A stretch of 64,000 nt of DNA from an uncultured Chloroflexia bacterium (lineage in GTDB: Bacteria > Chloroflexota > Anaerolineae > Anaerolineales > UBA4823). The position numbers were made by a program, and so were the translations under genes. The stretch spans positions 70,431 through 134,430 of the forward strand of contig CAWBYY010000001.1 of assembly GCA_963793095.1 (NCBI GenBank), read 5' to 3'. This document shows positions 4,579 through 64,000 of this stretch, piece by piece (within the stretch, counting starts at the first letter, position 1; every line of letters begins with the position of its first letter). Under the pieces are notes generated by a model that ran no database searches, was not told where the DNA came from, and saw only the letters and a list, made by a program, of their open reading frames with translations.

Positions 4579-6217
4579 TTATTCACCGAGTTTGTAAATC
4601 CTGACATACTCGAGGTTGTTGATCCAGACCGTATGCTCGGGCTGCCAGGATTTTATATACTCAAGCAGTTCAGCCGGCAGGTCGCGCTGCCACTGATGGA
4701 TGTAGATCACCAGGTAATCCGATTCCTCAAGCGTTTCCCAGTCAGCGGCGTTGAAAGTTCCGGTTCCGATATGCTCAGAATCTCCTTTGAAGAAGAAGGA
4801 GAAGGGCCCGTTCTGATACCAGGTGAACACATCCAGGTTCTGGGCGCCGTCTTTCTGGTTGAGGTAGATGGCAGCCTGGTCGAGGCCTTCGCCCCAGCCG
4901 ATCTGCATGACCCGGGGGGCAATGCGGCTCCCGCCCAGCAGGGGGTTGTAGTAAGCCAGGGAATAGGGGAAGATGCTGAGAGAAGACCAGGCCTGGAAGA
5001 AAACTAACCAGGACGAGGAGCGCCCCCGGGACGATCCTGGCGTAAAAAGCGGGCAGTCTCTCTTTCAGCCAGAGGGCGGCGGCGGTCCAGCCCAGGGCAG
5101 CGATGATATTGAGAGGGGCGTAGACCGGGAGCAGGTAGCGGTCGAACTTCTTGGAGCCCAGGTTCATCCCCAGGTAGAAGACGAGCACGGCGATCAGCAG
5201 GCCGAAGAGAGTGCGGCGGACGCCCGGCTTGGAGAAGAGCTCCTGTTTGGAAAAGAAAGCCCAGGCGGCGGCCAGCAGGCCGAGCAGGGTGGCCGGGGTG
5301 GTGCGCCACAGGTAGGTGAGGGGATAGAAGTAGAAGAAGCGCGGGCCTGAAATGCCGTCCGGGAAGACCTGGCCGTTGAAGAATACCGGCGAGCTGTGGC
5401 CTTCGGCGGCGTAGCCGCCTGCGGAGGCGAAAATTTCGAGCAGAACGCCGAGCGGGTTGACCCACATGGCGGGCCAGAGAAGCACAAAGACGGAGGCAGC
5501 CAGGAGCAGCCAGAGGGCGAAGCGCCAGGCGTAGCCCCAGAGCTGTTTGGGAAGGGCAGGGCTGGTATTCTTGCGGTAGGCGAGCCAGAGATCGAGCAGG
5601 AATAAGAGGGCTGCGGTGGGGAGCAGGAAGAAACCGGGCGATTTGGTGAGCCAGCACAGGCCCGCTGCGACGCCAGCGATGATAAGATCGTACACCCGGC
5701 GCTGAAAGAGGAAGGCGATGATAGCCAGGACAGCCAGCAGGTAAAGGCTGCTGAGCAGGGCGTCCAGGTGGAGCAGGCGCGCGAGGCCGAGCTGAAAGGG
5801 GTCGAAGGCGACCAGCAGGAAAGCGAGCAGGGCAGGCAGCCAGCCGGTCAAACGCCAGGAAAGCCAGAAAGCGAGCAGCAGCACAACCAGCTGGGCATAG
5901 CTCATAAATATCCTGGCAGAGACCAGGTTCGGGAGAGGCGTTTTTTCTACAACCTGCCTGAAGTAGTAGTCAACTGATTTATTTCGTCCAGGATCAGGGC
6001 TGGTTTCCCGGTATGATAAGTATTCCTTCAACATGCCCCCGCTGCCCAACCACATTACAGTCACCCCTGGATGGACGCTCTGGTAGGTCTTCCTGTAATC
6101 GCCCATCCTCAATGCCTTAAAAAACCCGCCCGACCGCTGCAGCCAGTTGTTTTCATCAATGGTTACCGCCCGGTTGAGGTCAAGGCGGCGCGGCAGCCAG
6201 ACCGCCCCGGCAACCAT
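4579..6217 (-). pseudogene. GT39 / ArnT-PMT-like membrane glycosyltransferase, copy 1, reading frame interrupted (3n+1)
   Basis: The N-part ORF 4775..6217 is polytopic and has a DE motif in the first loop (AVTIDENNW). The C-part lies in the +1 frame and includes track ORF 4579..4908. That frame is open from about 5060 and reads ...SIFPYSLAYYNPLLGGSRIAPRVMQIGWGEGLDQAAIYLN. After the shift, the 0-frame tail is Pro/Arg/Gly junk. The likely junction is at the short run 5000-5003 or 5023-5027. The start is uncertain: homology to copy 2 continues upstream of ATG 6217 with no in-frame ATG/GTG/TTG. Confidence 0.75.
4789..5889. repeat. near-identical 1.1-kb tract, copy A of the tandem GT39 duplication
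   Basis: It aligns base-for-base with 6583..7683 at offset 1794. By eye I found four mismatches (4902, 5229, 5572, 5780). The out-of-frame track ORFs are duplicated identically, for example 5396..5605 = 7190..7399. Confidence 0.9.
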
Positions 6218-6372
6218 AAGCAGGACAAATATTCTTAAAAACTGTTTTCCAGGAACTGGAAGGATTACGATACACGGTAAACACCAGCGCCTGTATTTTT
6301 GAGGCTGGAAAATGGATACCAGTGGAATGGATTTGGAGCGGGCATTTTGGTCAAAAATTGTAATTTAAAAAA

Positions 6373-8041
6373 TCAGTCCGGTACTTTGTAGATTTTGACA
6401 TACTCGAGGTTGTTGATCCAGACTGTGTGCTCGGGCTGCCAGGATTTTATGTACTCAAGCAGTTCAGCCGGCAGGTCGCGCTGCCACTGGTGGATGTAGA
6501 TCACCAGGTAATCTGATCCGGCGAGGGTCTGCCAGTCGCTGCTGGTAAAATCCCCGTCGCTTATTTTTCGTGAATTCCCTTCGAAGAAGAAGGAGAAGGG
6601 CCCGTTCTGATACCAGGTGAACACATCCAGGTTCTGGGCGCCGTCTTTCTGGTTGAGGTAGATGGCAGCCTGGTCGAGGCCTTCGCCCCAGCCGACCTGC
6701 ATGACCCGGGGGGCAATGCGGCTCCCGCCCAGCAGGGGGTTGTAGTAAGCCAGGGAATAGGGGAAGATGCTGAGAGAAGACCAGGCCTGGAAGAAAACTA
6801 ACCAGGACGAGGAGCGCCCCCGGGACGATCCTGGCGTAAAAAGCGGGCAGTCTCTCTTTCAGCCAGAGGGCGGCGGCGGTCCAGCCCAGGGCAGCGATGA
6901 TATTGAGAGGGGCGTAGACCGGGAGCAGGTAGCGGTCGAACTTCTTGGAGCCCAGGTTCATCCCCAGGTAGAAGACGAGCACGGCGATCAGCAGGCCGAA
7001 GAGAGTGCGGCGGACGCCCGGCCTGGAGAAGAGCTCCTGTTTGGAAAAGAAAGCCCAGGCGGCGGCCAGCAGGCCGAGCAGGGTGGCCGGGGTGGTGCGC
7101 CACAGGTAGGTGAGGGGATAGAAGTAGAAGAAGCGCGGGCCTGAAATGCCGTCCGGGAAGACCTGGCCGTTGAAGAATACCGGCGAGCTGTGGCCTTCGG
7201 CGGCGTAGCCGCCTGCGGAGGCGAAAATTTCGAGCAGAACGCCGAGCGGGTTGACCCACATGGCGGGCCAGAGAAGCACAAAGACGGAGGCAGCCAGGAG
7301 CAGCCAGAGGGCGAAGCGCCAGGCGTAGCCCCAGAGCTGTTTGGGAAGGGCAGGGCTGGTATTCTGGCGGTAGGCGAGCCAGAGATCGAGCAGGAATAAG
7401 AGGGCTGCGGTGGGGAGCAGGAAGAAACCGGGCGATTTGGTGAGCCAGCACAGGCCCGCTGCGACGCCAGCGATGATAAGATCGTACACCCGGCGCTGAA
7501 AGAGGAAGGCGATGATAGCCAGGACAGCCAGCAGGTAAAGGCTGCTGAGCAGGGCGTCCAGGTGGAGCAGGCGGGCGAGGCCGAGCTGAAAGGGGTCGAA
7601 GGCGACCAGCAGGAAAGCGAGCAGGGCAGGCAGCCAGCCGGTCAAACGCCAGGAAAGCCAGAAAGCGAGCAGCAGCACAACCAGGTGGGCATAGCTCATC
7701 CATATCCTGGCTGAGACCAGGTTTTCGAGCGGGTTGTTTATGATGCCCTGGTAGAATTCACGGTCTTCCAGTTTGTCTCCCAGTTTTTCAATTTTGCCTG
7801 TTTGGGATTGGTACTCCTGCAGCAACCCCCCGCTGCCCAGCCACATAATTGTGACCCCCGGGTGGGGGGCCCTGAAGGTCCTCTGGTAATCGCCCTGTTT
7901 TGTGAATATCAGAAATTTCAGGGAGCGCTCAAGCCACTTGATCTCATCGGTCGTAACCGCCCGGTTTAAATCCAAGCGGCGCGGCAGCCAGATTGCCCCC
8001 GCAATTAACAGGAGACAAACAAAGTACATTAAATACTTCAA
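6373..8041 (-). pseudogene. GT39 / ArnT-PMT-like membrane glycosyltransferase, copy 2, same frame interruption (3n+1)
   Basis: N-part ORF 6464..8041 (MKYLMYFVCLLLIAGAIWLPRRLDLNRAVTTDEIKW...) and C-part ORF 6373..6702 (MQVGWGEGLDQAAIYLN...). The architecture and frameshift position match copy 1, at an offset of 1794 bp. Confidence 0.8.
6583..7683. repeat. near-identical 1.1-kb tract, copy B of the tandem GT39 duplication
   Basis: See 4789..5889. Identity decays on both sides: 6373-6582 is only moderately similar to 4579-4788, and 7684-8041 versus 5890-6217 is diverged with indels. Confidence 0.9.
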
Positions 8042-8255: not shown

Positions 8256-8729
8256 TTATTTAATTGAATTGATAATTTCATCGATCTGCCTGTGATGAAA
8301 AGCCTCATGGCTGGCGTACCCTGCAAACCATTCAAGCCCGTTCATGCCTTCATCAAATCCTCCTTTGTGAGTAAGTTCAAGGTTCCCATCCGCAGGCCAG
8401 TTGTCGAAGAGAAATAACGTCTCCGAGCGGGCGCGCTGCAGCCAGAACTTGATGACATCTTTGCTCACTCCGGCTGGTGGAGGTGGGGGCATGTAGGTTA
8501 TCCCTTCAGGAGGTTTTATACCCAGTAAAAGGGGGCGGGCGATCAACTCGCGCAGGTAAATTTCATCCAGGGCGATGTGCATAAATACCTCCCCAGGAGT
8601 CCAGCCTTCACCGTTCTGGACTTCAGCGGGCCGCATATCAAGGTCACCCTGCGACAGCGGATGTAACAATTGGAGTGTTTTTTTCCTAACTTCAATTAAT
8701 TTTTGAAGAACTTGCTCTTTTTTATCCAA
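8256..8729 (-). CDS. DinB-family protein
   Basis: 157 aa. It has a DinB-like helical bundle with His motifs (FMHIALDEIYL ... GYASHEAFHHRQIDEI). Confidence 0.7.
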   Translation of the reverse strand: MDKKEQVLQKLIEVRKKTLQLLHPLSQGDLDMRPAEVQNGEGWTPGEVFMHIALDEIYLRELIARPLLLGIKPPEGITYMPPPPPAGVSKDVIKFWLQRARSETLFLFDNWPADGNLELTHKGGFDEGMNGLEWFAGYASHEAFHHRQIDEIINSIK

Positions 8730-8790: not shown

Positions 8791-9376
8791 TTATAATGGT
8801 TTCTTCAACAAAGTTGACAGGACCGGACCATCCGGGAGCTGGAATTCCCCGGTTTTTATAAACCCCAGGTTGAGATAGAATTTCAAACTCTTCTCATGGG
8901 CGGTTTCCAGGAACGCGGGGATATTATCACGTTCACATACTTCGAAAACAGGCTGCAGCAATCCCGCGCCGATACCCTGCCCCTGGAATGGCGGGTCCAC
9001 TCCCAATATGGAGAGATACCAGTGCGGGAAAGCGGGGCGAACTTGCCCCAACACCTTTCTGCCTGCAATCGTCCGGCTGAAATCGGCGCCGTGCATCAGA
9101 TGTAAATAGAATTCTGAATTCCCATCTTTCAAATCTGGACAAACCCATACCGCCGGGCGGATCCCACAGGGCTGCCCCGGCAAGATTGCTGTCCGTGTAA
9201 ACCATACTGCGCCTGATTTTCTGCTTTAGATGGATGGAGAAGAAATAGGGGGATTTTTTCTGGTACCTTTCCCGGTCCGGAAAAAACCATGTCAATGCTG
9301 GATCCCGGGCAAAGGCTCTCACCAGAACACCTGTTAGAGGCAGGATGTCAGATTTTTTAGCGAGGCGGATCTTCAC
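8791..9376 (-). pseudogene. GNAT family acetyltransferase, reading frame interrupted (3n+1)
   Basis: The N-part lies in the frame of ORF 8933..9523, with a probable GTG start at 9376 preceded by AGGAAA (VKIRLAKKSDILPL...AALWDPPGG). The C-part is ORF 8791..9183 (PHWYLSILGVDPPFQGQGIGAGLL...LKFYLNLGF). The span of 586 nt equals 3n+1. The junction is near 9140-9180. Confidence 0.65.
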
Positions 9377-9437
9377 GGAGATTTCCTGAATTTTTGGGTG
9401 AATCAGTGATTGGCGATTGAGCCTGGAATTTTTTAGA

Positions 9438-9854
9438 TCAGGGCAGGCTGATTTCGCCCCGTTCATTGATCGAAATTTCGGTCCTGCTTTCCAGCCTGTC
9501 AAAGTCAGCCCGAGAAACCGCAATCACCGGGATAGAAGATCCGTACATCACCTGGGCTACAATGCAGGCCAGGGCAAAGAAGGTGTCAACTCCTGTGGTG
9601 ATGATACCAGCCGGGGCGGTGTTGTTGCGCAGCGCTTCCAGCAGCACCGCCGTGGTGGTGGAAGAGCCGCGCGTGAAGGGGACTGCCAGCACTTTCCCGG
9701 CTGCGTTCTCTCCGCAAAGCGAGTGCCGGCGGTCGGTTATCTCCCCGGTGCGGTGGTCATAGCCTCCCCAGAAGGATATCGGCTCATCTGCGACCAGGGC
9801 AGGAGCCTCAGCCCTCCCGGGTACGACAGCCTTCCCGGTGATTATCCGTCCCAT
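9438..9854 (-). CDS. aconitase X swivel-domain subunit (DUF126; AcnX small subunit)
   Basis: 138 aa with ISFWGG...GKVLAVPFTRGSSTT, typical of DUF126. It overlaps the large-subunit gene by 13 nt. Confidence 0.85.
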   Translation of the reverse strand: MGRIITGKAVVPGRAEAPALVADEPISFWGGYDHRTGEITDRRHSLCGENAAGKVLAVPFTRGSSTTTAVLLEALRNNTAPAGIITTGVDTFFALACIVAQVMYGSSIPVIAVSRADFDRLESRTEISINERGEISLP

Positions 9855-11107
9855 ATCGAATCGTCCAGCACAACCCGGCCTGTAATTGCAGACCTGACGC
9901 AGTCTGCCAGGCTTCCATAGCTGACCTCCGCTTTCAGCATCCCGGGTGAATAATAGGCGTATTTGCCCGAATTCGTCATCAGGTTCTTTATCTCAGGGTT
10001 GAGCATCGGTGTGGCAAGGATACAGGTGTCGGTTGTGAACCTGGCGCCAAACTTCCGCAGAGGTTCTAGGAGGCCCTCCTGCTCAGCCTGTTCGAGCTGC
10101 AGGCGGTTGGTGGTGATATGAAACAGGACCTGTGGATGCGCCTTTTTCCCCGCGACCAGACCAGCAAGTTTTTTGAACTCATCAATAGAGAAGTGGGGAC
10201 AACCCAGGGCAACCATATCCAGATGTTCGCCCTGAGCGGTGGTTAATTCAAGGCGGGCAGCCCGCAAATCGCCAGTGGTAATCTCAAATTTACCCTCAGG
10301 TTCTCTCCCCTGAAAGGCGGATTTTAAGGTCGGGGCTTCAGGCGTCACCCCAACCATATGGTAAAGGGCGACTGTTCCGGAGGAGGCCGCCGCGGCGCCA
10401 AAGGCTTTGTGCTGGTCGCTGGTCGGCGTGACTTTTATGCCATCCAGCACCGGGATTCGATCGTGGGCGATCCTACCGACCAGATGGCCCAGCACAGGGT
10501 AAAAATCATCCGCCTGCTGCAGCGTTTCGGGGATTTCCACCAGTTTAAGGAGGACCTGGCCGGCCCGGTTTTCAGCCAGGTGCAGGCCGGCTGCGGGAGC
10601 CCGCCCGGTTATGGCGCAGCAGATGTCCAGCAGGTCGGGATAGCGTTCCGTGCGGGCGCCAATGACGGAATTGGCATACACGATCGCGTTTGACTCTCCC
10701 CAGGCAATTTGCTGGCCGAAACGAGGCTGCCAGCGGGTCTGGTAAGGGGCGCAGGTCCAGGTTGGGATGGCGCCCATGCTCTGGTAAGCGACCATCTGGC
10801 GCTGGGCAGCCAAAGCCCAGTCCCGGTTCACGTCCCATTCCTGCCAGCGCATTTCATCCAGCCCGCTTACATTGAGGGTGGTTGGGACCGCGACCCTGGC
10901 ACCCAGTCCAGCCAGGTGTTCGGCGTATTCCAGGCCGGCATCGCCGATATAGATCGTGCTGTCGATGTGGGCCCCGCTGATATCCAGCAGTTCGTTTGCT
11001 GAATAAACCTCCGCCATGCGGACCAGTATCTCCAGCGCCATTTGGGGAGCCGGGCCGTGTTTTCCTGCGAGCATAGACTGGTCGCTTGCGGACAGTTTCA
11101 GAGACAT
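9842..11107 (-). CDS. aconitase X catalytic-domain subunit (DUF521; AcnX large subunit)
   Basis: The conserved part starts at MSLKLSASDQSMLAGKHGPA (ATG 11107). The track ORF extends to 11236. The size and the pairing with DUF126 fit a two-subunit AcnX. Confidence 0.85.
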   Translation of the reverse strand: MSLKLSASDQSMLAGKHGPAPQMALEILVRMAEVYSANELLDISGAHIDSTIYIGDAGLEYAEHLAGLGARVAVPTTLNVSGLDEMRWQEWDVNRDWALAAQRQMVAYQSMGAIPTWTCAPYQTRWQPRFGQQIAWGESNAIVYANSVIGARTERYPDLLDICCAITGRAPAAGLHLAENRAGQVLLKLVEIPETLQQADDFYPVLGHLVGRIAHDRIPVLDGIKVTPTSDQHKAFGAAAASSGTVALYHMVGVTPEAPTLKSAFQGREPEGKFEITTGDLRAARLELTTAQGEHLDMVALGCPHFSIDEFKKLAGLVAGKKAHPQVLFHITTNRLQLEQAEQEGLLEPLRKFGARFTTDTCILATPMLNPEIKNLMTNSGKYAYYSPGMLKAEVSYGSLADCVRSAITGRVVLDDSIWDG

Positions 11108-11322
11108 GGGGCTAATTATATTGTATCCAGACCGGGTTTTGTGTGTGAATGAAAATCCTCGGTTCGGATGTTCAAATGGAAACCATTGAGGCCTTTTCCG
11201 GGATTCGAAGTGCAGTTTGAAAAAAGAACTTGACACTATAGAACATATGTGCTAATATTTTGGATATTGATTGAGCAGGTGAGGGTCAGGTTCAGTTTCA
11301 ATATTAATTTTGGAGGTTATAA

Positions 11323-11874: not shown

Positions 11875-12961
11875 ATGAATGAGCGTTTGAAAGATATTTT
11901 TTTCACCGAAGAGTCGCTCAACTCGCTTGCAGAAGCGCTCAAGGATGCGTACCCTGAATTTGACCAGTCCAGGTTTTTTGAGCTGGTCTATTCGGATGGC
12001 TGGCAGGAGATGGCATTAAAGGAGAAAATGCACCGCACGGCAGACTGCATGCGCCAGACCCTTCCGGAAGATTATCCCGAGAGCTCTGGAGATTTTAAAG
12101 CAGGCTGCTCCCAGGGTTAAGGGATTTGAAGCCCTGGCTTTTCCGGATTTTGTGGAGAAATACGGCTTTGATGACTGGGACCTGTCACTGCCGGCGCTGG
12201 GATATTTCACCAAATTTGGAAGCTCAGAATTCGCGATCCGCCCCTTTCTGGCTCATGACTATAAACGGGTGATGCCGTACCTGCATGATTGGGCTGGCGC
12301 TGAAGATGAAAACGTCCGCCGGCTGGCGAGCGAAGGCCCCCGCCCCAGGCTGCCCTGGGGGATCAGGCTGGAGGTATTCATATCCGACCCGGGACCGGTC
12401 CTGGAGGTGCTGGAAAGGCTGAAAGATGATCCCTCCGAAACCGTGCGGCGCAGCGTCGCGAACAACCTGAATGACATCTCCAAGGATCATCCCGAGATTG
12501 CGCTGGAGGTGGCCGAACGCTGGATTGGCTATTCTGAGGACAGGGACTGGATCGTAAAACACGCCTGCCGGGGACTGCTTAAATCAGGCGACCAGCGCGC
12601 GATGAGGCTGTTTGGTTTCTGCGACCCGCAAAATGTCGCGGTTGAACAATTTGGGATAATCCCGGCATCCGCCAGGATTGGAGACAAAGTAAAACTTAAG
12701 TTCCAGCTGATTGTAGATGTAGGTCCTGAAACTTTGATCAGGCTTGAGTACAGGGTGGATTACGTGAAAGCCAGCGGTAAAGCCTCCCGGAAAGTTTTTC
12801 AGATTTCGGAAAAAAGCTATTCCCCCGGTCCGCATAGCATCACAAAGAACCACAATTTTGCGGATATGTCGACCCGCAGACATTATCCGGGCGTGCATAA
12901 AATTTCTATAATCGTTAATGGAATAGAAAAAGCCTATTCTCAGGTTGAATTATCCAGCTGA
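11875..12961 (+). pseudogene. DNA alkylation repair protein (AlkD-like HEAT-repeat family), reading frame interrupted (3n+1)
   Basis: ORF 11875..12120 plus ORF 12152..12961. The second frame is already open at about 12078 and reads (DYP)RALEILKQAAPRVKGFEALAFPDFVEKYGFDDWD, which joins the two parts. The junction is at CCC 12076-12078. The span of 1087 nt equals 3n+1. Confidence 0.7.
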
Positions 12962-13862
12962 GGGGAATTTCAAGCGGTAACCCCGCAGTGTCCTTTGGTG
13001 GTTAAACCCGCTGCTCTGGTAGAGTTTGACAGCGGCGGTGTTCTCAACATCAACCGCCAGGCTTACCACCCGGACTTCACTGAATGAAAATATCCAGTGC
13101 AGGGCAGTGACCAGCAGCCTTTTGCCAATCCCGCGCTTGCGTTCGCCTTGCTCGACGCCGATGAAATCGATCCCGGACTCCCCGATTTCGGGCGAAACGT
13201 AAGCGAAAATATATCCCAGCAGGCGGCCTGCTTCCGATACAACGAAAACATGGTGGGTGCCGTCAATTTTCTGGTACAGCTGGCTCCCGTTGTAGTAAGT
13301 CCCCGGGAACAGCTTATCGTGCAGAGCCTGGAACTGGTCGGCAAGCCCCGGCGTTAACCGGCTTTCGGAAACATGAGGGAGATGCTCGAGTGATGCACGC
13401 TGGAAGACCAGCAGGGTGGCGTCGCCGCTCGTCCGGTACCCGTGGCGTAGCGGCGAACTGTTCCAGCTTTTTATTTTGAGTGCCGCCGGCTAGCTCGTAG
13501 TCGTTTATCCCTTCCGGGATAATTTCCACAATTCGCTCATATAAAAGTTCCGCCAGGCCTTCCCAATCCGGGATTGAGATCAGGGGACCTTCAATCCAAG
13601 CCCGGCCCAAATCCAGGTCATACTCCAATCCGATCACGCCTGCCAGGCTGTCTTCCGAACGAGCCAGCAGGTAACTCTCTTCCGGGGGAATGGTCTGTTC
13701 ATTCAACAGGTAATACTCGATCTCATCTAGGGTGGTGCCGTAATAGGCGATATGGTGTTCGGGCTGGCTGTTTAAAGCAGCGATAAACCGGCAAACTTCA
13801 GGGAGATCAGAAGATAAAAAAAGCCTGGTTGTGTAAAGGTCACGGATATGAGGATTGGGCAA
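12950..13862 (-). pseudogene. two-domain GNAT acetyltransferase, reading frame interrupted (3n+1)
   Basis: The N-part lies in the frame of ORF 13314..13964. The C-part is my own translation, has no start codon and so is not in the track: ...RHGYRTSGDATLLVFQRASLEHLP...VFVVSEAGRLLGYIFAYVSPEIGESGIDFIGVEQGERKRGIGKRLL...VDVENTAAVKLYQSSGF...*, with its stop at 12950-12952. The junction is near 13441-13455. The start is uncertain (TTG 13862 is proposed). Confidence 0.6.
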
Positions 13863-13881: not shown

Positions 13882-15111
13882 TTAATCGAATTTAAATACG
13901 GTTTTGAAGGATTGGTTCTCCGCCCGTTTGGACTGCAGGGCCAGCGCCTGGCGGTATTCTTCAAGCTTAAATCTGTGGGTCACCATCCAGCCCAGGTCAA
14001 CCCGGCCCTGGGCCATCCAGTCAATTGCGATGTCAAAAGTGCTCCGCTGGCGCCCATCGATAATATCTGCATGGTTGTATATGTAGGAGGACTTTAAACG
14101 CAGTTCATGGATGAAGATGGCGGACCAATCGACACCTTTGGCGACCCCGGGCACGCCCACCAGAACTACCAGGCCCCCGTTGTTTGTAAATCGCAATGCG
14201 TCATCCAGGCTGGTGTCCGATCCGACGCATTCGTAAACCTGGTCATACCCACCCAGCAGCATTCTTTTGCCGATAACCGGTTTCAGGATTTGAGCCCCGC
14301 TTAACCGGCTGACTTCAGCATAATAGTCGACCCCACCCGAGGCGAGTATTACCTCATCAGCCCCCAACCTGCGGGCAACCTCAGCCTGGAAGGGGTATCG
14401 GGCCAGCACGTGGATCCTGTTTTTCAACCCATAAGCCCGCATTGCGGCGAGGGTGCAGAGGGCGATCGTACCGGCGCCGATGACCAGGATCGAATCATCT
14501 TCGGCGGGCTGGTTGTTTAATACTGCATGCAGACCGGTCGCAAAAGGCTCGACCATCAGACCATTCTCAGCGCTAAGCGAATCCGGGATGCGGTAGAGCT
14601 GGGACTGGTGAGCCAGGAAATATTGGCTCCAGCTCCCGCCGGTGTCTTTGCTGAACCCGATTGATAAACTGGGAGATAGATCTCCCTGTGTGACCCGTTC
14701 GCAGCGGTTGGTCTCCCCACGCTGGCAGAAGGGGCATAAATCCTCAAAACCGCGCGGCCGGCACCACAGGGATGGCTCGACCACCACCCGCTCGCCTTCG
14801 CTGAACCGCTCAACCGCCGGCCCAATCCGGGTAACAACACCGATGTTCTCGTGGCCGAGGGTGAAAGGGTAGGATGTGAGCGGGGTTAAATACGGGCTGG
14901 CATGCAGGCGGATCGCGCTCATATCGCTGCCGCAGATGCCGCCGTAGCGGGTTTTGATTATGACCCATTCGTCACCGATAAGCTCAGGCTCGGGTACATC
15001 CTCGAAAGTTGTGCAGGACAGACCGCTCCAGAAAAAATCCTCCCGGATTTTTCCCAGAGCCAGTCCGGCTGCATAGCGGGGTATCGTGGGATTAAATCTC
15101 AATGCCTTCAT
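13882..15111 (-). CDS. zinc-dependent alcohol/polyol dehydrogenase (MDR superfamily)
   Basis: GICGSD, GHENIGVV and a GAGTIALC Rossmann motif are present. 409 aa. Confidence 0.85.
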   Translation of the reverse strand: MKALRFNPTIPRYAAGLALGKIREDFFWSGLSCTTFEDVPEPELIGDEWVIIKTRYGGICGSDMSAIRLHASPYLTPLTSYPFTLGHENIGVVTRIGPAVERFSEGERVVVEPSLWCRPRGFEDLCPFCQRGETNRCERVTQGDLSPSLSIGFSKDTGGSWSQYFLAHQSQLYRIPDSLSAENGLMVEPFATGLHAVLNNQPAEDDSILVIGAGTIALCTLAAMRAYGLKNRIHVLARYPFQAEVARRLGADEVILASGGVDYYAEVSRLSGAQILKPVIGKRMLLGGYDQVYECVGSDTSLDDALRFTNNGGLVVLVGVPGVAKGVDWSAIFIHELRLKSSYIYNHADIIDGRQRSTFDIAIDWMAQGRVDLGWMVTHRFKLEEYRQALALQSKRAENQSFKTVFKFD

Positions 15112-24537: not shown

Positions 24538-25396
24538 TTAAGAGCCCGAGTCTGGAGGGTGTTCCTGGTTAGAGTTATCAATTTGCTTAATCGCCCTGTT
24601 ATGCAGCCAATCCAGGACAGGAAACACACCCTTGCCAAGGATATTGATCGATTTAAATATTAATTTCATCCCAGCATCCGGAATAATCACTTCCTGGTTT
24701 CGTTCGATCCCTTCAAGGATCTGGCGGGCTACTTTTTCCGGACGGTAACGGGTCAGTTGCAGGGACGAAATCAAGGATTTTTTTCCAGGCTTCTGGCTTG
24801 AACCTGTTCTCATATTCTAATTGGGGCGTATCCGTATCCGCTGGATAGACAATCGAAACATGGATGCCATGCGGTTTCAACTCCATGCGCAGGGCGTCAG
24901 AAAAACCGCGCAGGGCAAATTTGGAAGCCGCGTAGGCAGTGTAACCAATGACCCCGATTACAGCCATCATCGAAGCGATATTGACTATATGACCTGCCCC
25001 CCTTTCCAACATGCCCGGAAGCACTGCTTTGGTGAGGTTGACTGCCCCGAAATAATTCACATCCATCATCCAGTGGTAGGTTGCCAGGTCCAGGTCCCGG
25101 GTATAGCCGGGTTGGACCACCCCGGCGGAGTTGATGACCATATCAGGATACCAGCCGTTCTCTAAAAGCTGCCCAACGCTGCGGTTGACCTGTTCTTCAT
25201 TTGAAACATCTGTGGGGAAGGCGTAATGCTGGCCGGGATGGATTTTTTGAATTTCACTTAGGGCATTTTCCAGCTGGGGGATGGTCCGGGCAAAGATAGA
25301 AATATTAGCGCCTTCAGTTGCCAGCTGCCGTGAAAGTTCCAATCCAATCCCGCTGCTTCCCCCGCTTATCAGGACATTGCGGTCTTTAAATTCCAT
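24538..25396 (-). pseudogene. short-chain dehydrogenase, 3-ketodihydrosphingosine-reductase-like, reading frame interrupted at a 7-nt homopolymer (3n+1)
   Basis: N-part ORF 24713..25396 (VLISGGSSGIGLELSRQL..., YAASKFAL) and C-part ORF 24538..24813. Removing one base from the T7 run at 24778-24784 (A7 in sense) gives YPADTDTPQLEYENRFKPEAWKKSLISSLQLTRYRPEKVARQILEGI, which parallels the KDSR C-terminal region. Confidence 0.75.
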
Positions 25397-25431: not shown

Positions 25432-25803
25432 CTAAACATGCTGGTCTACAAGAATTGGATTTCCATCCGGGTCTTCAATGATAAAACTGGCCGGGCCGGT
25501 TGTGCTCTCATCCGCTTCGCTGATAAATTTCAGACCCTGCTCTTTGAGCAGGTGCTGCAGGTCGCGGATGTCTGTAAATTGATCCAGTTTATTGGTGTCG
25601 CTGTCCCACCCTGGATTGAACGTCAGTATATTCTTCTCGAACATCCCCTGGAACAGACCGATGGTGGTACCCATATTTTTTAATATCAACCAGTTCTGGG
25701 CCGGGTCGCCACCGAATACTTCAAAACCCAGTTTTTCATAGAATTGTCTTGAGGCTTCAATGCTTTTAACGGTCAAACTTATCGAAAATGCACCCAGTTC
25801 CAT
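25432..25803 (-). CDS. VOC (glyoxalase/bleomycin-resistance) family protein
   Basis: I moved the start to ATG 25803 ([29 protein letters not shown]...) with an AGGAGA RBS. The upstream extension in the track overlaps galK. Confidence 0.75.
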
Positions 25804-25813
25804 CTGTTTTCTC

Positions 25814-26980
25814 CTAAAGATAAAGCACACTGGCTCCCTGGCTGGGGCGGCAAAGATAAATCTGAGCCCTGAGGCCAGTGTCCTGGTAGTATTCTTCGCC
25901 AAGCCGGGCGATAAAATCTTGCTCGCTTTTTTCCTGAACGAGGTTTACTGTGCACCCGCCGAACCCAGCCCCGGTAAGACGGGCGCCGATGCAGCCCTCC
26001 AGATCCCGGGTAAGTTTAACGAGCGTGTCCAATTCGGGTGTGCTGACTTCGTACGAGTCACGCAGGCTGGCATGGCTGGCGTACATCAAGGCTCCGAAAA
26101 CCTGTTCATCGCCACGGTGAAGGGCGTTCAGGGCTGAATTTACCCGGGCGATTTCTTTAACAACATGTTCTGCCCTCATTCTTTCTATCCTGGGAAGGAA
26201 TTCACTGTAGGCGGCAAATTCAACCGGGGATATATCCCGCAGAGATTGGATTCCCGGAAGGTATTCCCGCAGATGCCTGACGGCGCTTTCACAGGAGAGG
26301 CGCCTATCATTGTACCCTGAAGAGGTCAAAGAACGGCGGACATTTGAGTCAGCGATAATGATACTCAGATAATCCGGAAGCGGGGCTGGCTGGTATTCCA
26401 GACTGCGGGTGTCAAAGTATAAGGCATGGCCTTCGACGCCGCAGGCGCTCGCAAATTGATCCATCAGACCGCAGGAAACCCCGACATATTCGTTTTCCGC
26501 CCGCTGGCAAATTTTGGCCATTTCGAGCGGTTCGATCTCCCAATCCTCTAAACCCTGCCAGGTGAAACCGAATCCTACTTCAACCGCAGCCGAGGAACTC
26601 AAGCCGGCGCCAATTGGGATGTTGGAACTGTACACTGCGTTGATCCCCTGAACATTCAAACCTGATTCGATAAGCGCCCAGGCGACTCCAGCCGGGTAAA
26701 ACGCCCAGGCTGGCAGCGGATTTCCAACCTCATCCACTTTATCGCTCAAATCAGCGATATTAATGACAGATTCCTGTTCAAGATCCACTGCGTACAGGCG
26801 GATTTTGTTGTCAGCGTTTCTCGAAGCGGCGATGTTGACCTCTCTATCGATCGCGACCGGCAGTACCGGGCCTTCGTTGTAATCGACATGTTCGCCGATC
26901 AGGTTAACTCTCCCCGGGGCGCGGGTAAGCAGGTAAGGTTGGTGAGAGAATTTATCCGTAAAAATGCTAATAATCTGCAT
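25814..26980 (-). CDS. galK: galactokinase
   Basis: [17 protein letters not shown] (galactokinase signature), the GHMP motif [11 protein letters not shown], and GAGFGGC are present. Confidence 0.9.
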
Positions 26981-32194: not shown

Positions 32195-32255
32195 GGTTTT
32201 GTATTCAGGGATAGGGAAATGGATGCGGCTGTTCCCTATCCCATTTCCTTTAAAA

Positions 32256-42446: not shown

Positions 42447-43081
42447 AATGTACGGACTTCCAGGATCCCAGGATGATTAAATAGAATATTCGATAATTCC
42501 CGGTGATATTTTGGTTTGCCGATTGTTTTCCATTTACAGACCATTTTTTCCCCTATCCGGTCGCGGGAAAACCTGGATAAATTCAGCCGCGACTTTTCAA
42601 ATTCCAGGGATATCTCATCGAATAAGCCTTCCTTAATTGGGAAAACCAGCTCGTAGGTTTGGGTTATCCTCATCTGGTCGACAATATTTTCCAGCCTGGG
42701 AAACAGCAGGAGCACAGCCAGGATTGCGATGGTCGCGCAAATTACCAGCAGGTAAAAACCTCCACCGACAGCCATACCGAGTGCGGCGGAAATCCAGATT
42801 GTTGCGGCGGTAGTCAACCCCATTATCTGGCCCCGGTCTTGCAGGATTACACCGGCCCCCAGAAAGCCGACCCCGGCGACAATACTTGCGGCGATGCGCA
42901 CCGGATCTTCTTCGCCTCCCAGGCGGAGTGAAAGGATTGTGAAAAGGGTGGCACCCAGGCAGATCAATAAAATTGTCCTGAATCCGGCGGCTTTATCACG
43001 GTACTCCCTTTCTAGACCGATAGCCCCGCCAACCACTATGGAAAGCAGGATTTTGACTATCACCTCCTGGGTTAAAAACAC
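42443..43081 (-). CDS. MgtC/SapB family membrane protein
   Basis: The N-terminus ILLSIVVGGAIGLEREYRDKAAGFRTILLICLGATLFT is the MgtC signature. Confidence 0.85.
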   Translation of the reverse strand: MFLTQEVIVKILLSIVVGGAIGLEREYRDKAAGFRTILLICLGATLFTILSLRLGGEEDPVRIAASIVAGVGFLGAGVILQDRGQIMGLTTAATIWISAALGMAVGGGFYLLVICATIAILAVLLLFPRLENIVDQMRITQTYELVFPIKEGLFDEISLEFEKSRLNLSRFSRDRIGEKMVCKWKTIGKPKYHRELSNILFNHPGILEVRTL

Positions 43082-43156
43082 TGGGTCCCTCCTTTAAAAA
43101 TCTCCCGGCTATTACTTAAAAATTGTCAAAATATTTTTAAAAAGTCACATCCGAAT

Positions 43157-44975
43157 CTACCTTGAAATTACAGGCAGGTCAATATAAGAGCTGAATCTGG
43201 CGTTCCTTTCAATTTTCAGGAGCGGGTCGCCTTGCTCAGGGATGCGCTCAAATGTGTCCCGGTCGTGTCCGGCGATGCTCACCCGGATCCGGTGCCCTTT
43301 CCGGATTAATACTGAAGTAGGGAGCAAACCAAAGTGGAATTCGGTTCTTTCACCCGGGATGAGTGGGGTTTCAGCGGATTTTTTGAAGGAATGGTACGGG
43401 ACTGGTAAATTGAATGGCGGTTTTTCGCTTGATATTTTGCGGTGGCGAGCCCGCAGCAATCCTTCGGTGATGTAAATTACCCTTCCATCTTCAAATACAT
43501 CTTCCAGGTATACAATTATTACGCCGTCCGGTTCCGTGCTGGATACATAAAGCATGACCACCGGATAACCGCTGATCTCGGTATCCCTTTCCAGGGGCTG
43601 GCTGGTAAATGAGAGCAGCCTGCCCCCTGTCTCTCCCCGGTCGGGGTAGATCACAGTTGTGTCGTGAATACTGCTCATCTCCCACCAGCGGTTGTTTAAT
43701 CCGGTTGTAGCATTAAAATCAACCTGATACTCCTCATAACCATTTTCTTCAACCGGTCGCTCCGGCGCCAGCAAGCCGCCAGCCTGCAGGTACCACCTGG
43801 ATTGGGTCACCCCCTCAGGCGGCCAGGTATGGGTTTGTTTCCACTTTTCTTCTCCCATTGTGTAGTAGAACAGGACTTTCTGATCCGCTGCTGGTGGAGT
43901 TTTTTCTTTCAAGCAAGAGTCAAAAAACCGCAGCATCTCCGCCCATTGTCCTTCAAGGGGCGGAAGTGATTTTAGTCCGGGTGAGGCGTACGGACTGGCG
44001 TGGTAGCGCCCGCCGTGTTCCCAGGCGCCAATGGCCCCGCGGACTGCATAATCCACAGTCATAAAACGGCGCAGAACCGCATCTGCGGTGCCAGCATCCA
44101 TCCAGCTTCCGAAGCCGAACAGAGGCACTCCAGCGTTGTGGATATTGCGGGCATATTTCTGCACCGTTATGTCATCAATCATGATATCGATTCCTTCGTG
44201 GCGTTCGTCCCGGCAGGAGACCAGTTGAGCCAGCTCGTAGACGCTCCCATTTGCCGCGATGCTGCTCGACCGCCTCTTTTAATTTCACTCTGCTGCCAGG
44301 TACATCCACCGGCTTCACGCCCTTCACAATAATCCGGCCTCTGAGCCCATACTCGGCAGGGATTGTATTGTGGTCAAGGGCGAGATCAAATTGTCCCCAG
44401 TCACTCAGGAAACGCCTGTTCATGACTCCGCCGGGAAAAGCGATATCCGTATAGCCATCCGGGTGGTTGAACATCGGAATAACCGCTTTTACGGCAGGAT
44501 GTTCAACCGCGGGAAGCAGTTCGGCGGTTGTTCCGACATATGAGATGCCAAAACCCGCTACAAGACCATTGGACCAGGGCTGCCGGATTATCCACTCCAC
44601 AATTTCACGGGCATCATCAATCGATACCTCCGGCCACGGGTACGGCCAGACGCCGTATGAAGCGCCGGTCCCGCGCACATCCACAAAAACCAGGGCGTAA
44701 CCCCGGCTGGTGAAGAATGGTTTCATCTTATTAAAATCGGGGTTTAAATCAGCGGGTTTTATAAATAGGCTGAAAGGCCAGCGAATTTCAATTTCCCGCC
44801 AGTAACGGGTCTGGTTTAGCAACGCCGGTAGTTTATCTGCACGGCTGAGACTGGCGGGGAGCAAAACCTCCACAGCCAGCTCGACCCCGTCCCGCATTGG
44901 GACATAGTACGATGAGGACTTGATCCCCGAGTATTCAGGTTGAGGTGGTGAACAGCAGCCGAATTCTTCTTTCAT
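43157..44975 (-). pseudogene. CocE/NonD-family (S15 X-Pro dipeptidyl-peptidase-like) hydrolase, reading frame interrupted (3n+1)
   Basis: N-part ORF 44175..44975 (YVPMRDGVELAVEVLLP..., FVDVRGTGASYG) and C-part ORF 43157..44182, whose frame is open further upstream (…NGSVYELAQLVSCRDERHEGIDIMIDDITV). The junction is at AAA (44250-44252 on the plus strand as TTT). The span of 1819 nt equals 3n+1. Confidence 0.8.
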
Positions 44976-46734: not shown

Positions 46735-48861
46735 GTGGAAACATTAAATAAGCTGGTCTCGTCATCAATAAATTTCTTTTTAAGACCCTTCTGGATAATA
46801 AAAGAATATGAAAGAAGTGATTTCCGCCCGGATTTAAGCGCGGGTTTGACAGTCGCGGTGATTATGCTGCCCCAGGCGGTTGCCTTTGCGCTGATCGCGG
46901 GTTTGCCGCCCCAGATGGGTTTATACGCAGCAATAGTCGCATCCATTATTGGCGGATTGTGGGGTTCTTCCAACCAGCTTCAGACTGGACCGACGAATAC
47001 CCTCTCTCTGCTGGTGCTTTCCGTCCTGCTGCCACTGGCGAATCCGGGGGAGACGCAGTACTGGGTGCTGGCAGGTATGCTGGCGGTTATGGTTGGGCTA
47101 CTCCAGGCTGGGATGGGCTTGCTTCGCCTGGGACTGCTGGTGAATTTTGTCTCAGATTCGGTGATTGTTGGATTTACGGCCGGCGCAGGCGTTTTGATTT
47201 TCTTCAACCAGCTTCGCAACCTGTTCAGGCTCAGTATCCCCTCAACACCCATGCTGTATGAAACCGTTCAGAATATGCTGTTAAATCTGCCGGAAGTGCA
47301 TAATATCAGCCTGGTGATCGGCCTGGGGGTAATCCTGTTGATTTTAATACTGCGGCGGATCAACCCCAGGATACCATCTGCCCTGGTTGCGATTGTGCTG
47401 TCTGGAGCGCTTGTGGCGGTGTTTAATCTGGATGATTTTGGGGTAGCGGTTGTTGGGCAATTACCGCAGGGTTTTCCGCCGTTTTCCTCTCTGCCGCTCT
47501 TTGATCTTAAAGTGTACCCGAATCTGGTTACCGGGGCGCTGGCGATCGCCGCAATTGGACTGGTAGAGTCGATGTCCATTGCCAGAAGCATTGCCAGCCA
47601 GACTGGGCAGCGCCTTGACAATAACCAGGAATTTATCGGGCAGGGATTGGCGAATTTTGCCAGCGGGATATTTTCCGGCTATTCTGTTGCGGGTTCTTTC
47701 AGCCGTACGGCGATAAACCGCCAGGCTGGCGCCCGCTCCGGGGTATCCAATGTTGTCGCGGGTTTGATTCTGCTGGTCACCCTGCTGCTTTTTGGTTCTT
47801 TTGCTGGCTATATTCCCCTGACAGCCCTGGCAGGCGTATTGATTATTGTTGCGATCGGGTTAATCCATAAGGAAGAGATCATTCGTATCTGGAACGGAGG
47901 GGGCGCAGACCGGATCATCATGACGATCACCCTGATTGCGACATTAACAATTCCCCTGGAATATGCTGTTCTGATTGGCATCGTTTTGTCCCTGGGCTAT
48001 TATTTGCTGCGGACAAGTATGCCCCGGGTCCGGATAGTGCTGCCGGATCAAGATTACCAGTTTCTGGTTAATCAGGAAACCAGGCCGGAATGCCCGCAGT
48101 TATCGGTGATCGAGGTGCTGGGAGACCTGTATTTCGGGGCGGTTAACCATGTTGAGGATTTTATACTCGCTCACCAGGTCCGCAACCCCAGCCAGCGATT
48201 TTTGCTGCTGCGCATACTCGGGGTGGAGCATTTCGACATAAGCGGCGTACATGCTCTGGAGCGGATTGTCAGGCTGTACCGGAAAAGAGGCGGGGATGTT
48301 TATATCAGCCGGATTCGCGATCCGGTTATGGAGGTGATGCGGGCGACAGGATTTTCTGAATATCTTGGCGAGGACCATTTCCTCGGAAGAGAAATGAATG
48401 CAATCGGAATTATTTTCTATAATGCGCTCGATCCAGCGGTCTGCATTTACGAATGCCCGCTGAGGGTACTTAAGGAATGCCAGGACCTGCCCAAACGGCT
48501 TGACCTGATCGGCGAATCTCCCCATTTTGAGGCATACCCGTGCGAAGTTAACACGATAACGCCAGCCGAATTATGGCGTGAATTAAAATCAGATTCCGGG
48601 GTGAGTATTATCGATGTGCGCGAACCGAGGGAATTTCGCCAGGGGCATATCCAGGGCGCGAAACTGATCCCGCTGCCGGATATCCTGGCTGATCCTGCCC
48701 AGGTTCCAAAAGATAAGCCGGTAGTGCTGAACTGCCGCGCCGGACGCCGCAGCACACGGGTTGCGTATGAGCTGGCCCAGAAAGGATACGATAATCTATT
48801 CGTGCTTGAAGGGGGAATCCTGGCCTGGGAAGCGGCGGTCTTGCTGGAGGCGATCGATTGA
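46735..48861 (+). CDS. SulP-family anion transporter with STAS domain and C-terminal rhodanese domain
   Basis: The N-terminus matches SulP (DLSAGLTVAVIMLPQAVAFALIAG). The STAS region is (VIEVLGDLYFGAVNHVEDF...). The rhodanese domain has the active-site loop CRAGRRS (…VVLNCRAGRRSTRVAYEL…). The start is GTG. Confidence 0.9.
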   Translation: METLNKLVSSSINFFLRPFWIIKEYERSDFRPDLSAGLTVAVIMLPQAVAFALIAGLPPQMGLYAAIVASIIGGLWGSSNQLQTGPTNTLSLLVLSVLLPLANPGETQYWVLAGMLAVMVGLLQAGMGLLRLGLLVNFVSDSVIVGFTAGAGVLIFFNQLRNLFRLSIPSTPMLYETVQNMLLNLPEVHNISLVIGLGVILLILILRRINPRIPSALVAIVLSGALVAVFNLDDFGVAVVGQLPQGFPPFSSLPLFDLKVYPNLVTGALAIAAIGLVESMSIARSIASQTGQRLDNNQEFIGQGLANFASGIFSGYSVAGSFSRTAINRQAGARSGVSNVVAGLILLVTLLLFGSFAGYIPLTALAGVLIIVAIGLIHKEEIIRIWNGGGADRIIMTITLIATLTIPLEYAVLIGIVLSLGYYLLRTSMPRVRIVLPDQDYQFLVNQETRPECPQLSVIEVLGDLYFGAVNHVEDFILAHQVRNPSQRFLLLRILGVEHFDISGVHALERIVRLYRKRGGDVYISRIRDPVMEVMRATGFSEYLGEDHFLGREMNAIGIIFYNALDPAVCIYECPLRVLKECQDLPKRLDLIGESPHFEAYPCEVNTITPAELWRELKSDSGVSIIDVREPREFRQGHIQGAKLIPLPDILADPAQVPKDKPVVLNCRAGRRSTRVAYELAQKGYDNLFVLEGGILAWEAAVLLEAID

Positions 48862-48874
48862 AGGAGGAATTGAA

Positions 48875-49864
48875 ATGAAAGACATCTTACCCAAGAATCT
48901 GGCATTTGACCTGGTCCGTGCTACCGAGACAGCCGCGCTGGTGGCAGGCCGCTGGATCGGGCTGGGCGAAAGAGAGCTTGCCGATAAACAGGCAACTGAA
49001 AATATGGTCGCGGCGTTAAACCGAATAAACATGGAAGGCAGGATTGTTATCGGGGAAATGACAGTCTCTCAGCCACCATTTTACGAACACGGTGAAAAGG
49101 TCGGTACCGGGAAAGGGCCGGAACTTGATGTGCTGGTCGATGCGATCGACGGCAGCACCCAGCTATCAAGAGGTTCATCGGGAGCGATATCTGCTGCGGC
49201 GGTCGCCCCGGCTGGCAGTATGGCCAGGCTGGTTGGTGTAACCTATATGAAGAAAATTGTGGTGGATTCTGATGTCGCCCCCCATCTCGTCTCGCAGTGC
49301 CTGGATGCGCCAGCAGCCTGGACTCTCGCTCTGGTGGCGCGGGCAAAAAATCGGAAAATCAGCACGCTGAATGTATTTGTGCTGGACAGACCGCGCCATA
49401 AGGACCTAACAGATGAAATCCGGGCAGCCGGGGCGCATGTTATGCTGGCGCCGGATGGGGATATTGCCGGCGGTTTGCTGGCAGCCACCCGAGACACTGG
49501 TGTGGATTTGTTAATGGGAAGCGGAGGCGTGATAGAAGGAATAATGGTAGCCTGTGTTGTAAAAGCCACCGGTGGGATGCTTATCGCCCAGCTTGATCCG
49601 CAGAACGAGCAGGAAATTGCTAATATTAAGCAGGCTGGTTTCGATCCCGCTCAAACATACAACCAGGACGACATGGTGAAAAGCGATCAGATTTATTTCA
49701 CAGCCACCGGGATCAATGATGGCCCAATTCTCTCGGGCGTGAAGTATGAGGGCGGCCTTGCAAAGACGAATTCGATCATGCTGCGGGGTGTGTCGAAGAC
49801 CAGGAGGACGATGGTTGCGGAGCACCAGATCGATGCCCAAAGGGCAGAAGAGAACCAGAATTAA
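48875..49864 (+). CDS. glpX: class II fructose-1,6-bisphosphatase
   Basis: The start ATG 48875 lies 8 nt after AAGGAGG. FDLVRATETAALVAGRWIGLGE...VDAIDGS is typical of GlpX. Confidence 0.9.
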   Translation: MKDILPKNLAFDLVRATETAALVAGRWIGLGERELADKQATENMVAALNRINMEGRIVIGEMTVSQPPFYEHGEKVGTGKGPELDVLVDAIDGSTQLSRGSSGAISAAAVAPAGSMARLVGVTYMKKIVVDSDVAPHLVSQCLDAPAAWTLALVARAKNRKISTLNVFVLDRPRHKDLTDEIRAAGAHVMLAPDGDIAGGLLAATRDTGVDLLMGSGGVIEGIMVACVVKATGGMLIAQLDPQNEQEIANIKQAGFDPAQTYNQDDMVKSDQIYFTATGINDGPILSGVKYEGGLAKTNSIMLRGVSKTRRTMVAEHQIDAQRAEENQN

Positions 49865-54131: not shown

Positions 54132-54137
54132 AAGCAG

Positions 54138-57854: not shown

Positions 57855-58350
57855 TTCTTTTCTTCCCCTAAAAGTTTAATGCAATAGTTCTCTATCCTGC
57901 ACTCAGAAGTAACAACATATTATATGGTAATTCTCATCGCCCAACCTTTCAGCTTATTGAAAAAATAATTCTGTAGTATTGATATAATCAATCAACGTGA
58001 AGGTTTAACGGATAAGTGACAATTTTTCACTTTATCCACAGAATTTGAATACAAAGAATTCTTCTGAGAGGTATTATCCAAAGCTTATAAGAAATTGATT
58101 CATATAAAATGTGTTTGGTGGATTTCTCGAATCAAGATGTTGGGTTATCAACCAGTTCACACAGCATGCACCCGACGCTTGGGATTCTGGGCGATATTTT
58201 TGGTTTGGTTCTAGCTTTTGGTATATACTGGTCTGTGGACATTATCTCGACCCGCCCCAGCACAGGTAACCCGAGCCGTTAGGCGGCCTGCTTCTTCACT
58301 CTGCTTGTGATAGGAAGACTGCCGCACACATATAAGGAGAGGTACCCTAA

Positions 58351-61435: not shown

Positions 61436-61827
61436 TTGCAGCTGCACTCACTTCGGTTTGATCTTTCTTCAGGGTGGATTTTTACTTAATTTAACCTTTC
61501 TTGTACGAACCATAATCGTCATGTTTCTCTCCTCTACCCATTGTTGGCATTATCACATAATCTTTGCGGTTCAGAAGTGTACAAAATGTATTTTGTTTCT
61601 AATGTAATAGTGCATATAATAGTTATGAATGATTGGTTACTACAATTTGAACCAAATATTAATCTATTGCTGAATAATCCCCCCTTTATTTTCAGGACGT
61701 TATACGGCAAAAAATGCCGCCATAGGCTTATTATACGGGCTGTATAAACACCAGTTGGGCCGTTCACGAAGCAGTAATTTATTTCTTGGGCAGCTGATAA
61801 TTCCGAATTGTAGAGGTTTATGTTCCT

Positions 61828-62787: not shown

Positions 62788-63046
62788 TCAGGCCACCCGA
62801 ACCCGCGAGCACCCGACACCTGCTCCGCAGCACTCCGCCAGTGCAGGAAACGCCAGTCGTTGGGCGAGCATCTACTAAGTGATAATGTTCCTTATGTAAA
62901 TTCACTGAATTGAAAGAATCCAAAACAAATTGATAGTTTATGAAGTTTATTGATAGCAACTCATAGGTATCATGAGTAAAACAAACTTCTGTGATCATGA
63001 TTTTCCCACTGGCAAGCATTTGTGAATAGGAAAAGAGAATAATCCT

Positions 63047-64000
63047 TTGAGGGTAAAAAGATTGCTAACGATCATACTGCGTTGGGCTGGACGGATATTA
63101 TTGGTTGGACTGTTTCTCTTTTTGGGGCTAATTATCTATCTGCTAGTTCGAGAGTCCATTACTCGAAACAAATATCGAGCTGAGTACCCTCCACCAGGTC
63201 AAATGGTAAATCTTGGAACCCATAATATCCATTTGAACTGCGCGGGGAGTGGGAGACCAACGGTTGTTTTTGAAGCTGACCTTGATCAGTATGGCTCGTT
63301 GAGCTGGGTGCCAGTTCAAGAAAGAATCGGGGAATTGACCCGCGCATGCAGCTACGATAGAGCTGGAATCCTGTGGAGTGAACCAGGGCCACTTCCCAGA
63401 GATGGCGAGACAATCGCACGTGAACTTTCTACTGTTCTGGATGCTGCAGGTGAAGAAGGTCCATATATCCTGGTGGGCCATGCATTTGGTGGTGCCTATA
63501 TCAGAATATTTGCGGGAAAATACCCTGACGATGTGTGTGGTATGGTGCTGATTGAATCAAGCCATCCTGAAATGCTGCACGCGCTTCGGTGAGTATGGCG
63601 TTGTACCAGAAATTCCAAGACAGAAATATCAGGCCCTTGATCCTGTTGTTGTCTCATCTGGGATCGCCAGGTCGATATAAAGGGAATGTGTATAACCTGC
63701 CACCTGAAATCTATGATCCAGTACAGGCATTCTTACCCGAATCAAGTATGACGTGGTTCGATGAGAAAGTTGAAAGCCCTAACACACTGGCACAAGCAGG
63801 GCATTATGAATATTTGGGCGACTGGCCATTGATTGTGCTTGCTACTTCAGGACCTTCACCTTCCTTGGGAGACCTAGGACAGAAACTAGATGATTTATGG
63901 CTCGAAATGCAGCGTGAGTTACTTTTACTGAGTGAGAATAGTGAGTTCAGATCATACGAGATAGGACATTATCCTCAACTTCAAGACCCCGAGGTGGTAA
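63047..64000 (+). pseudogene. alpha/beta-fold hydrolase with N-terminal membrane anchor, frame interrupted (probably twice); runs off the window end
   Basis: ORF 63047..63592 has a TTG start, an anchor ILLVGLFLFLGLIIYLLV and the nucleophile elbow GHAFGG. The sequence continues in other frames (RFGEYGVVPEIPRQ..., then ...LILLLSHLGSPGRYKGNVYNLPPEIYD...WPLIVLATSGP...EIGHYPQLQDPEVV) to position 64000. Confidence 0.65.

Follow-up and report, generated by a model that had tools for sequence, protein, structure and literature searches.

The DNA analysed here, referred to as the window, is a stretch of 64,000 nucleotides (nt) from an uncultured Chloroflexia bacterium of the order Anaerolineales (assembly GCA_963793095.1, contig CAWBYY010000001.1, positions 70,431 to 134,430), with a GC content of about 50%. 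Its closest relative in the genome collection is an Anaerolineales metagenome-assembled genome (MAG), which the intact AcnX gene (9842-11236) matches at 78% amino acid identity. Among the approximately 60 genes of the window, ten are each split into two open reading frames (ORFs), with the downstream part always in the +1 frame. They include a tandem pair of GT39/PMT_2-like glycosyltransferases (GT39a and GT39b), two GNAT acetyltransferases (GNAT1 and the two-domain GNAT2), an L-lactate permease (LctP) and an alpha/beta hydrolase that runs out of the end of the window, and are listed together with the bases responsible in Table 1.

The coding signal, followed with a codon-usage model trained on the long ORFs of the window itself, jumps from frame 0 to frame +1 within each of the ten genes. 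Gap-by-gap parsing of alignments with related assemblies locates eleven single extra bases, one in each of nine genes and two in the alpha/beta hydrolase, in which separate +1 insertions 42 nt apart carry the reading from frame 0 to +1 and then to +2. The insertions are found at 0.15-0.76 of the gene length, i.e. mid-gene, where they would disrupt entire domains, and the incoming frame meets a stop codon 12-332 nt beyond the insertion. The start-to-stop spans of the nine genes other than the hydrolase are all of the form 3n+1. A first-pass annotation, made from the letters alone, had listed these ten genes and nine spans, and both hold on recomputation, the frame plot and the shorter orthologues (see below) agreeing on the +1 direction in every case. 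Its suspicion that the terminal hydrolase is split twice was also borne out, while its heading of 'eleven or more' split genes has to be lowered to ten genes with eleven insertion events. The uniform direction that it described withstood alignment to homologues, since no junction proved to be a 2-nt deletion and the only double event consists of two +1 insertions.

Table 1 Split genes and single-base length differences in the window (positions in window coordinates; the inserted base is in brackets in the context column; a position in parentheses is the one assigned by gap-by-gap alignment parsing).
Feature	Coordinates	Strand	Span (nt)	Extra or missing base	Context	Orthologue ORF (nt)	Orthologue (amino acids)
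GT39/PMT_2-like glycosyltransferase copy a (GT39a)	4579-6217	-	1639	extra, 5004	coding strand GTT A[G]T TTT		
GT39/PMT_2-like glycosyltransferase copy b (GT39b)	6373-8041	-	1669	extra, 6798	same extra G as in copy a		
GNAT acetyltransferase (GNAT1)	8791-9376	-	586	extra A, 9113	TTC AG[A] ATT	585	194
AlkD-like HEAT-repeat protein	11875-12961	+	1087	extra G, 12079	CCC [G]AG AGC	1086	361
Two-domain GNAT (GNAT2)	12950-13862	-	913	extra, 13450/13451 (13451)	GCC [G]CT, substitution alongside	912	303
Short-chain dehydrogenase (SDR)	24538-25396	-	859	extra T, 24742	coding strand CCG [T]CC GGA	858	285
L-lactate permease (LctP)	27904-29434	-	1531	extra, 28634	+ strand AAT[C]GCGCGC	1530	509
ParB/Srx-like protein, no Pfam match	37697-38534	+	838	extra, 37822-37828 (37822)	A6 to A7	837	278
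CocE/NonD hydrolase (Peptidase_S15 + PepX_C)	43157-44975	-	1819	extra, 44254/44255 (44254)	+ strand TTTG[C]CGCG	1818	605
Alpha/beta hydrolase, exits window end	63047-64000	+		extra, 63578 and 63620	CTG [C]AC and CCA AG[A] CAG		330-335
Intergenic single extra bases (six)	24491, 46572, 57276, 58056-58060, 61694, 61728			extra	from alignment to relatives		
Intergenic single missing bases (two)	9431 (within 9429-9434), 43099 (within 43096-43100)			missing	both in A/T runs		

The nature of the junctions was established by comparison with relatives on independent assemblies, namely contigs from Joint Genome Institute (JGI) 3300017971, 3300017963 and 3300028840, ENA ERZ27256783 and ERZ27256798, and Logan SRR6963591 and SRR14699966. 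When these identifiers were looked up in the literature, the only result was a link from the first two to D. Valentine's JGI metagenomes. These contigs, the longest of which among the close relatives has 59,964 bp, are collinear with positions 7305-64000 of the window, at 96.5-99.3% DNA identity overall and 92-100% per gene. All eleven extra bases are absent from the assemblies of at least seven independent samples, and the orthologue ORFs are exactly 1 nt shorter than the window span for each gene lying wholly inside the window. The comparison of orthologous loci, which the first-pass annotation had proposed as a check, thus returned every gene as a single ORF without the extra base. The SDR, GNAT1, GNAT2, AlkD-like, ParB-like and CocE/NonD orthologues are uninterrupted in all covering contigs, LctP is a single ORF in contigs L015 and L016, and the alpha/beta hydrolase is one ORF in seven contigs, from which both of its extra bases are absent.

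The same holds at greater distances. The GNAT1 orthologue is intact in contigs L010-L012 and in a 67%-identical Anaerolineales MAG (L001), the GNAT2 family is intact (about 302-309 amino acids) from 90% down to 30% identity, and the AlkD-like orthologues P0054 and P0055 read ...EDY(P/S)RALEIL... across the junction, the more distant outgroups P0048, P0049 and P0054 being intact as well. For the glycosyltransferases, scanning metagenomes with the C-terminal part of GT39 recovered JGI contigs L030-L032, in which the junction is uninterrupted (...GGTTA-TTTTC..., one ORF), at 93% and 78% amino acid identity; a 501-amino-acid PMT_2 paralogue in contig L010, also tried as a guide to this junction, was too distant to place it. 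The repaired GNAT2 was also used to look for an uninterrupted copy in the same strain; the best match had 90% identity, so that no same-strain control was obtained. The split products are present in the public NCBI/ENA record of the window, which means that the lesions are part of the assembly as deposited, and the protein clusters containing the truncated SDR, ParB-like and GT39a products hold solely proteins of that record. The junctions can be written as k-mer pairs, GGTTAGTTTTCTTCC versus GGTTATTTTCTTCC for GT39, TTATCCCGAGAGCTC versus TTATCCCAGAGCTC for the AlkD-like gene and TTACCGTCCGGAAAAAG versus TTACCGCCGGAAAAAG for the SDR.

Deleting the eleven bases gives full-length ORFs with one terminal stop apiece, the hydrolase ORF leaving through the window end; in GT39a, for instance, removal of position 5004 opens a frame of 545 amino acids. 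With the frames repaired, the Pfam matches to Lactate_perm, Peptidase_S15 and Abhydrolase_6 run unbroken across the junctions, and LctP covers positions 1-520 of the 522 of the Lactate_perm profile in a single stretch. Compared with all the related assemblies, nine of the genes are longer by exactly one base and the hydrolase by two, and taking out the surplus restores the gene in each case. Base-by-base alignment of positions 8797-64000 (55.2 kb) showed no gene with a missing base, a nonsense codon or an indel longer than one base, the only places at which the window is one base short of its relatives being the two intergenic positions in Table 1. When the GT39 pair is counted once, ten out of ten events have the same direction (two-sided binomial p = 0.002).

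We then considered whether the disrupted parts still evolve as coding sequence. The pooled ratio of nonsynonymous to synonymous substitution rates (dN/dS), calculated after frame correction, has a value of 0.245 for the parts downstream of the insertions and 0.271 for those upstream, against 0.153 in 43 intact genes. The downstream halves are evolving as coding sequence, with no trace of relaxed selection. Lesions that fall mid-gene, that leave the disrupted parts without relaxed constraint and that are private to one assembly are the marks of an assembly error, and all of these are observed here.

The first-pass annotation had attributed the splits to insertion-biased homopolymer error in the assembly, placing several junctions on short runs. 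The insertion bias and the assembly origin are supported by the private, unidirectional and mid-gene nature of the lesions, while the homopolymer part fails, as only one of the eleven coding insertions is within a run of at least 4 nt. This is the ParB-like A7 (37822-37828), the only one of the quoted runs that proved to be the actual site. The SDR junction, assigned to the A7 at 24778-24784, is in fact at 24742, which is 34-42 nt past it, and the relatives have a run of equal length there. In the AlkD-like gene the inserted base is the G that follows the C3 (12076-12078), in CocE/NonD the event is a C to CC change beside the A3 (44250-44252), and in GT39a the insertion, a C on the + strand, stands beside the A4 (5000-5003), the alternative C5 (5023-5027) being uninvolved. 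The proposed C3, A3 and A4 runs thus each adjoin the true site, and the inserted nucleotide differs from that of the run.

Since 7.8% of the aligned bases are in runs of at least 4 nt, one insertion in 11-15 is what chance would place in such a run. The longer runs of the aligned region are nearly all of the expected length, with 81 out of 83 runs of at least 6 nt and 21 out of 22 of at least 7 nt (including the A7 at 24778-24784) matching the relative. The inserted base is unlike both neighbours at seven sites, corresponding to eight events because the GT39 site is present in both copies, and at two sites it duplicates a single neighbour; this proportion is about that of a random base at a random place. 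Inspection by eye of the 17 insertion contexts, coding and intergenic, revealed no motif, quadruplet codon or methylation-type site that they have in common. Errors of the homopolymer type (454, Ion Torrent or Nanopore R9) are recognised by their concentration in runs and by long runs of the wrong length, neither of which is seen in the aligned region, and a pure homopolymer-prone platform is excluded by this comparison of run lengths. In the 10 nt on either side of the insertion sites, the density of substitutions is about 2.5 times the average.

The extra bases could instead be real, the strain having recently lost ten accessory genes by +1 frameshifts and the GT39 lesion having been copied from one gene to the other by gene conversion. 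Such young pseudogenes would account for the identical insertion in both GT39 copies, inside a core that itself resembles a conversion tract, and would agree with the dispensable look of all the affected genes, with the apparent accuracy of homopolymers in the assembly, and with natural inactivation in the population, represented by a 29-bp LctP deletion in contig L017 and a split Lactamase_B gene in Ga0180438_10000741. Bacterial indel spectra, however, are deletion-biased and driven by slippage, whereas the tally here is eleven insertions with no deletion, nonsense codon or larger indel, and at seven of the ten distinct sites the base is non-templated and outside any run. The lesions occur in no other assembly, disruption would affect about 17% of the genes and yet a second lesion is found only in the hydrolase, and the downstream dN/dS is similar to the upstream one. 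The mixed lesion spectrum and the relaxed selection that characterise genuine pseudogenes are both lacking in the ten genes, with dN/dS well below 1, and we regard this origin as unlikely. The high disrupted fraction (10 of about 60 genes) does resemble that of reductive genomes such as Mycobacterium leprae and Sodalis. In those genomes the lesions are mixed (deletions, nonsense codons and insertion sequence elements), several may affect one gene and constraint is relaxed, in contrast with the one lesion type, the single lesion in nine out of ten genes and the dN/dS of about 0.25 found here. A variant with real bases would have non-templated +1 insertions, scars of end-joining or of another insertion-prone repair, accumulating rapidly in one sediment Anaerolineales lineage, with the GT39 copies homogenised by gene conversion. 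This would imply a mutational burst of an unusual kind, with a strong bias towards insertions, or some means of tolerating such a burst, and the uniform non-templated +1 spectrum would be an odd mutational signature; we consider it quite improbable.

Of all the readings, the one to which we give least credence, to the point of nearly dismissing it, is that the bases are genuine and that expression of the genes proceeds through +1 ribosomal frameshifting or transcriptional slippage, which the first-pass annotation had offered as its alternative. It is consistent with the uniformly +1 direction, with the clean ORFs and normal codon usage of both halves of every gene, and with the A7 run at one junction (37822-37828). 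The orthologues, at 92-99.5% DNA identity, are nevertheless devoid of any frameshift site, so that the shift is not conserved, and no defined shift site recurs, the eleven sites having ten different contexts with no shared motif or codon. The +1 frame of the downstream part and the good coding potential of both parts are as in the +1 frameshifting of the prfB/RF2 type. Sites of this type are conserved in orthologues and have an in-frame stop after the shifty codon and an upstream stimulator resembling a Shine-Dalgarno sequence; here, by contrast, the orthologues have no shift, the contexts differ and the stop is 12-332 nt off rather than at the shift site. A suppressor tRNA would find no common quadruplet to read, and a tRNA scan found no tRNA gene in the window. 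As for transcriptional slippage, the rescue of genes at poly(A) runs in insect endosymbionts has a parallel in the ParB-like A7, one base longer than in the relatives, where it is an in-frame A6. Slippage rescue needs long A/T runs, whereas ten of the eleven junctions have no slippery run and the genome, at about 50% GC, is not A/T-rich.

We therefore return to assembly error, and estimate a probability of roughly 0.85 that the split genes are artefacts of insertion errors at random positions in the assembly consensus; that they are not a biological feature is almost certain. Spurious single-base insertions, mostly unlike their neighbours, would have entered the consensus about once per 4-5 kb at essentially random positions, most likely during sequencing or consensus building and not in the cell. 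This profile would fit insertion-dominated single-molecule reads at modest metagenomic coverage, PacBio continuous long reads being reported to have about 8% insertions versus 3% deletions (proovframe preprint, bioRxiv 10.1101/2021.08.23.457338). Alternatively, consensus polishing may have been confounded by co-occurring strains, a possibility raised by the higher density of substitutions close to the insertion sites. The window has much in common with known indel errors of long-read or hybrid assemblies and MAGs, including the many adjacent-ORF splits, the private lesions, the intact orthologues and the repair by a single base, and its insertion bias also fits insertion-dominated single-molecule reads. 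It departs from the commonly described Nanopore pattern, given as homopolymer-linked in PMC9262707, in that 81 out of 83 long runs have the right length and the majority of the insertions are outside homopolymers.

Several observations weigh against this assignment, and the error is inferred from the comparison of assemblies rather than seen in reads. The most demanding is the extra G at the same place in GT39a and GT39b, since independent random errors would not coincide, and the four other differences within the 1.1-kb core are kept apart between the copies. The shared G could be explained by a consensus built from pooled reads or at the edge of a duplicated repeat, by a context-specific error, or by a real insertion spread by gene conversion. 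Extra bases are also about four times denser between genes than within them, with 6 in about 7 kb versus 9 in about 48 kb of coding sequence, which implies that some natural indel variation is admixed. The six intergenic extras probably come in part from this error process and in part from natural indels between genes, and the two intergenic missing bases look like ordinary natural indels. All ten affected genes look accessory, and real decay does occur in these populations, as contig L017 (JGI 3300028840) has an LctP deletion of its own. A minority of the sites could thus represent true insertions, the most plausible candidates being the one shared by the GT39 genes and the A6/A7 length change in the ParB-like gene.

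If the consensus is at fault, roughly one in six genes is wrongly given as two fragments in the public record, whose gene calls need frame correction, and the same error rate probably holds throughout the contig of 473,341 bp. Any gene count, pseudogene call, completeness estimate or protein-family statistic derived from this assembly would be distorted accordingly. Homopolymer-aware polishing, or a check of the A runs, would miss ten of the eleven errors, while alignment to related assemblies pinpoints every one of them at single-base resolution.

The 3n+1 geometry is not diagnostic by itself and homology is required, because three ordinary neighbour pairs and the region before 4579 mimic or resemble it and yet consist of intact genes. 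The three pairs, which have 3n+1 spans and stood out in the frame plot as possible further split genes, are galactokinase/glyoxalase (25432-26980), aldehyde dehydrogenase/CoA-transferase (31286-33830) and SulP/GlpX (46735-49864). Pfam identifies complete and unrelated domains in each of them, and the resemblance arises because the downstream ORF is open for 89-155 nt upstream of its real start. Likewise, the suspicious overlaps at 869-2565 are due to MsrA, DinB and LOG genes, and the region before 4579 contains six separate intact genes.

A candidate extra base at 40971-40973, in the tail of a Lactamase_B gene (40939-41925), was also rejected, as the difference stems from a base lost in the relative lineage. 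The product has 328 amino acids in the window and 324 in contigs L016 and L019 through a 1-bp deletion, and distant Logan proteins share the C-terminus of the window, whose tail is the ancestral one. This case demonstrates that the polarity of indels has to be checked. In Ga0180438_10000741 the same gene is split into parts of 199 and 87 amino acids. The LctP deletion of contig L017 (window 28961-28989) divides that protein into 345 and 151 amino acids, and is a different lesion from that of the window.

The two GT39 genes share a core of about 1.1 kb (4788-5891 in GT39a and 6582-7685 in GT39b) with only four differences, and have strongly diverged N- and C-terminal flanks, so that this tandem paralogue pair appears to be a gene-conversion-like mosaic. 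All short-read contigs of the relatives terminate inside this core. Next to the pair, the segment 8042-8797 contains a DinB-family gene (8256-8729), and the 97%-identical contig L010 (17267-19110) has there the unrelated 501-amino-acid PMT_2 glycosyltransferase mentioned above. The identity between window and relative is itself mosaic, with islands of 92-94% DNA identity at 8797-9376, 9842-11107, 13882-15111 and 42443-43081 in a background of 98-100%. The low-identity islands comprise AcnX, a zinc alcohol dehydrogenase, MgtC, GNAT1 and the N-terminal half of GNAT2, and this distribution of divergence suggests recombination between strains.

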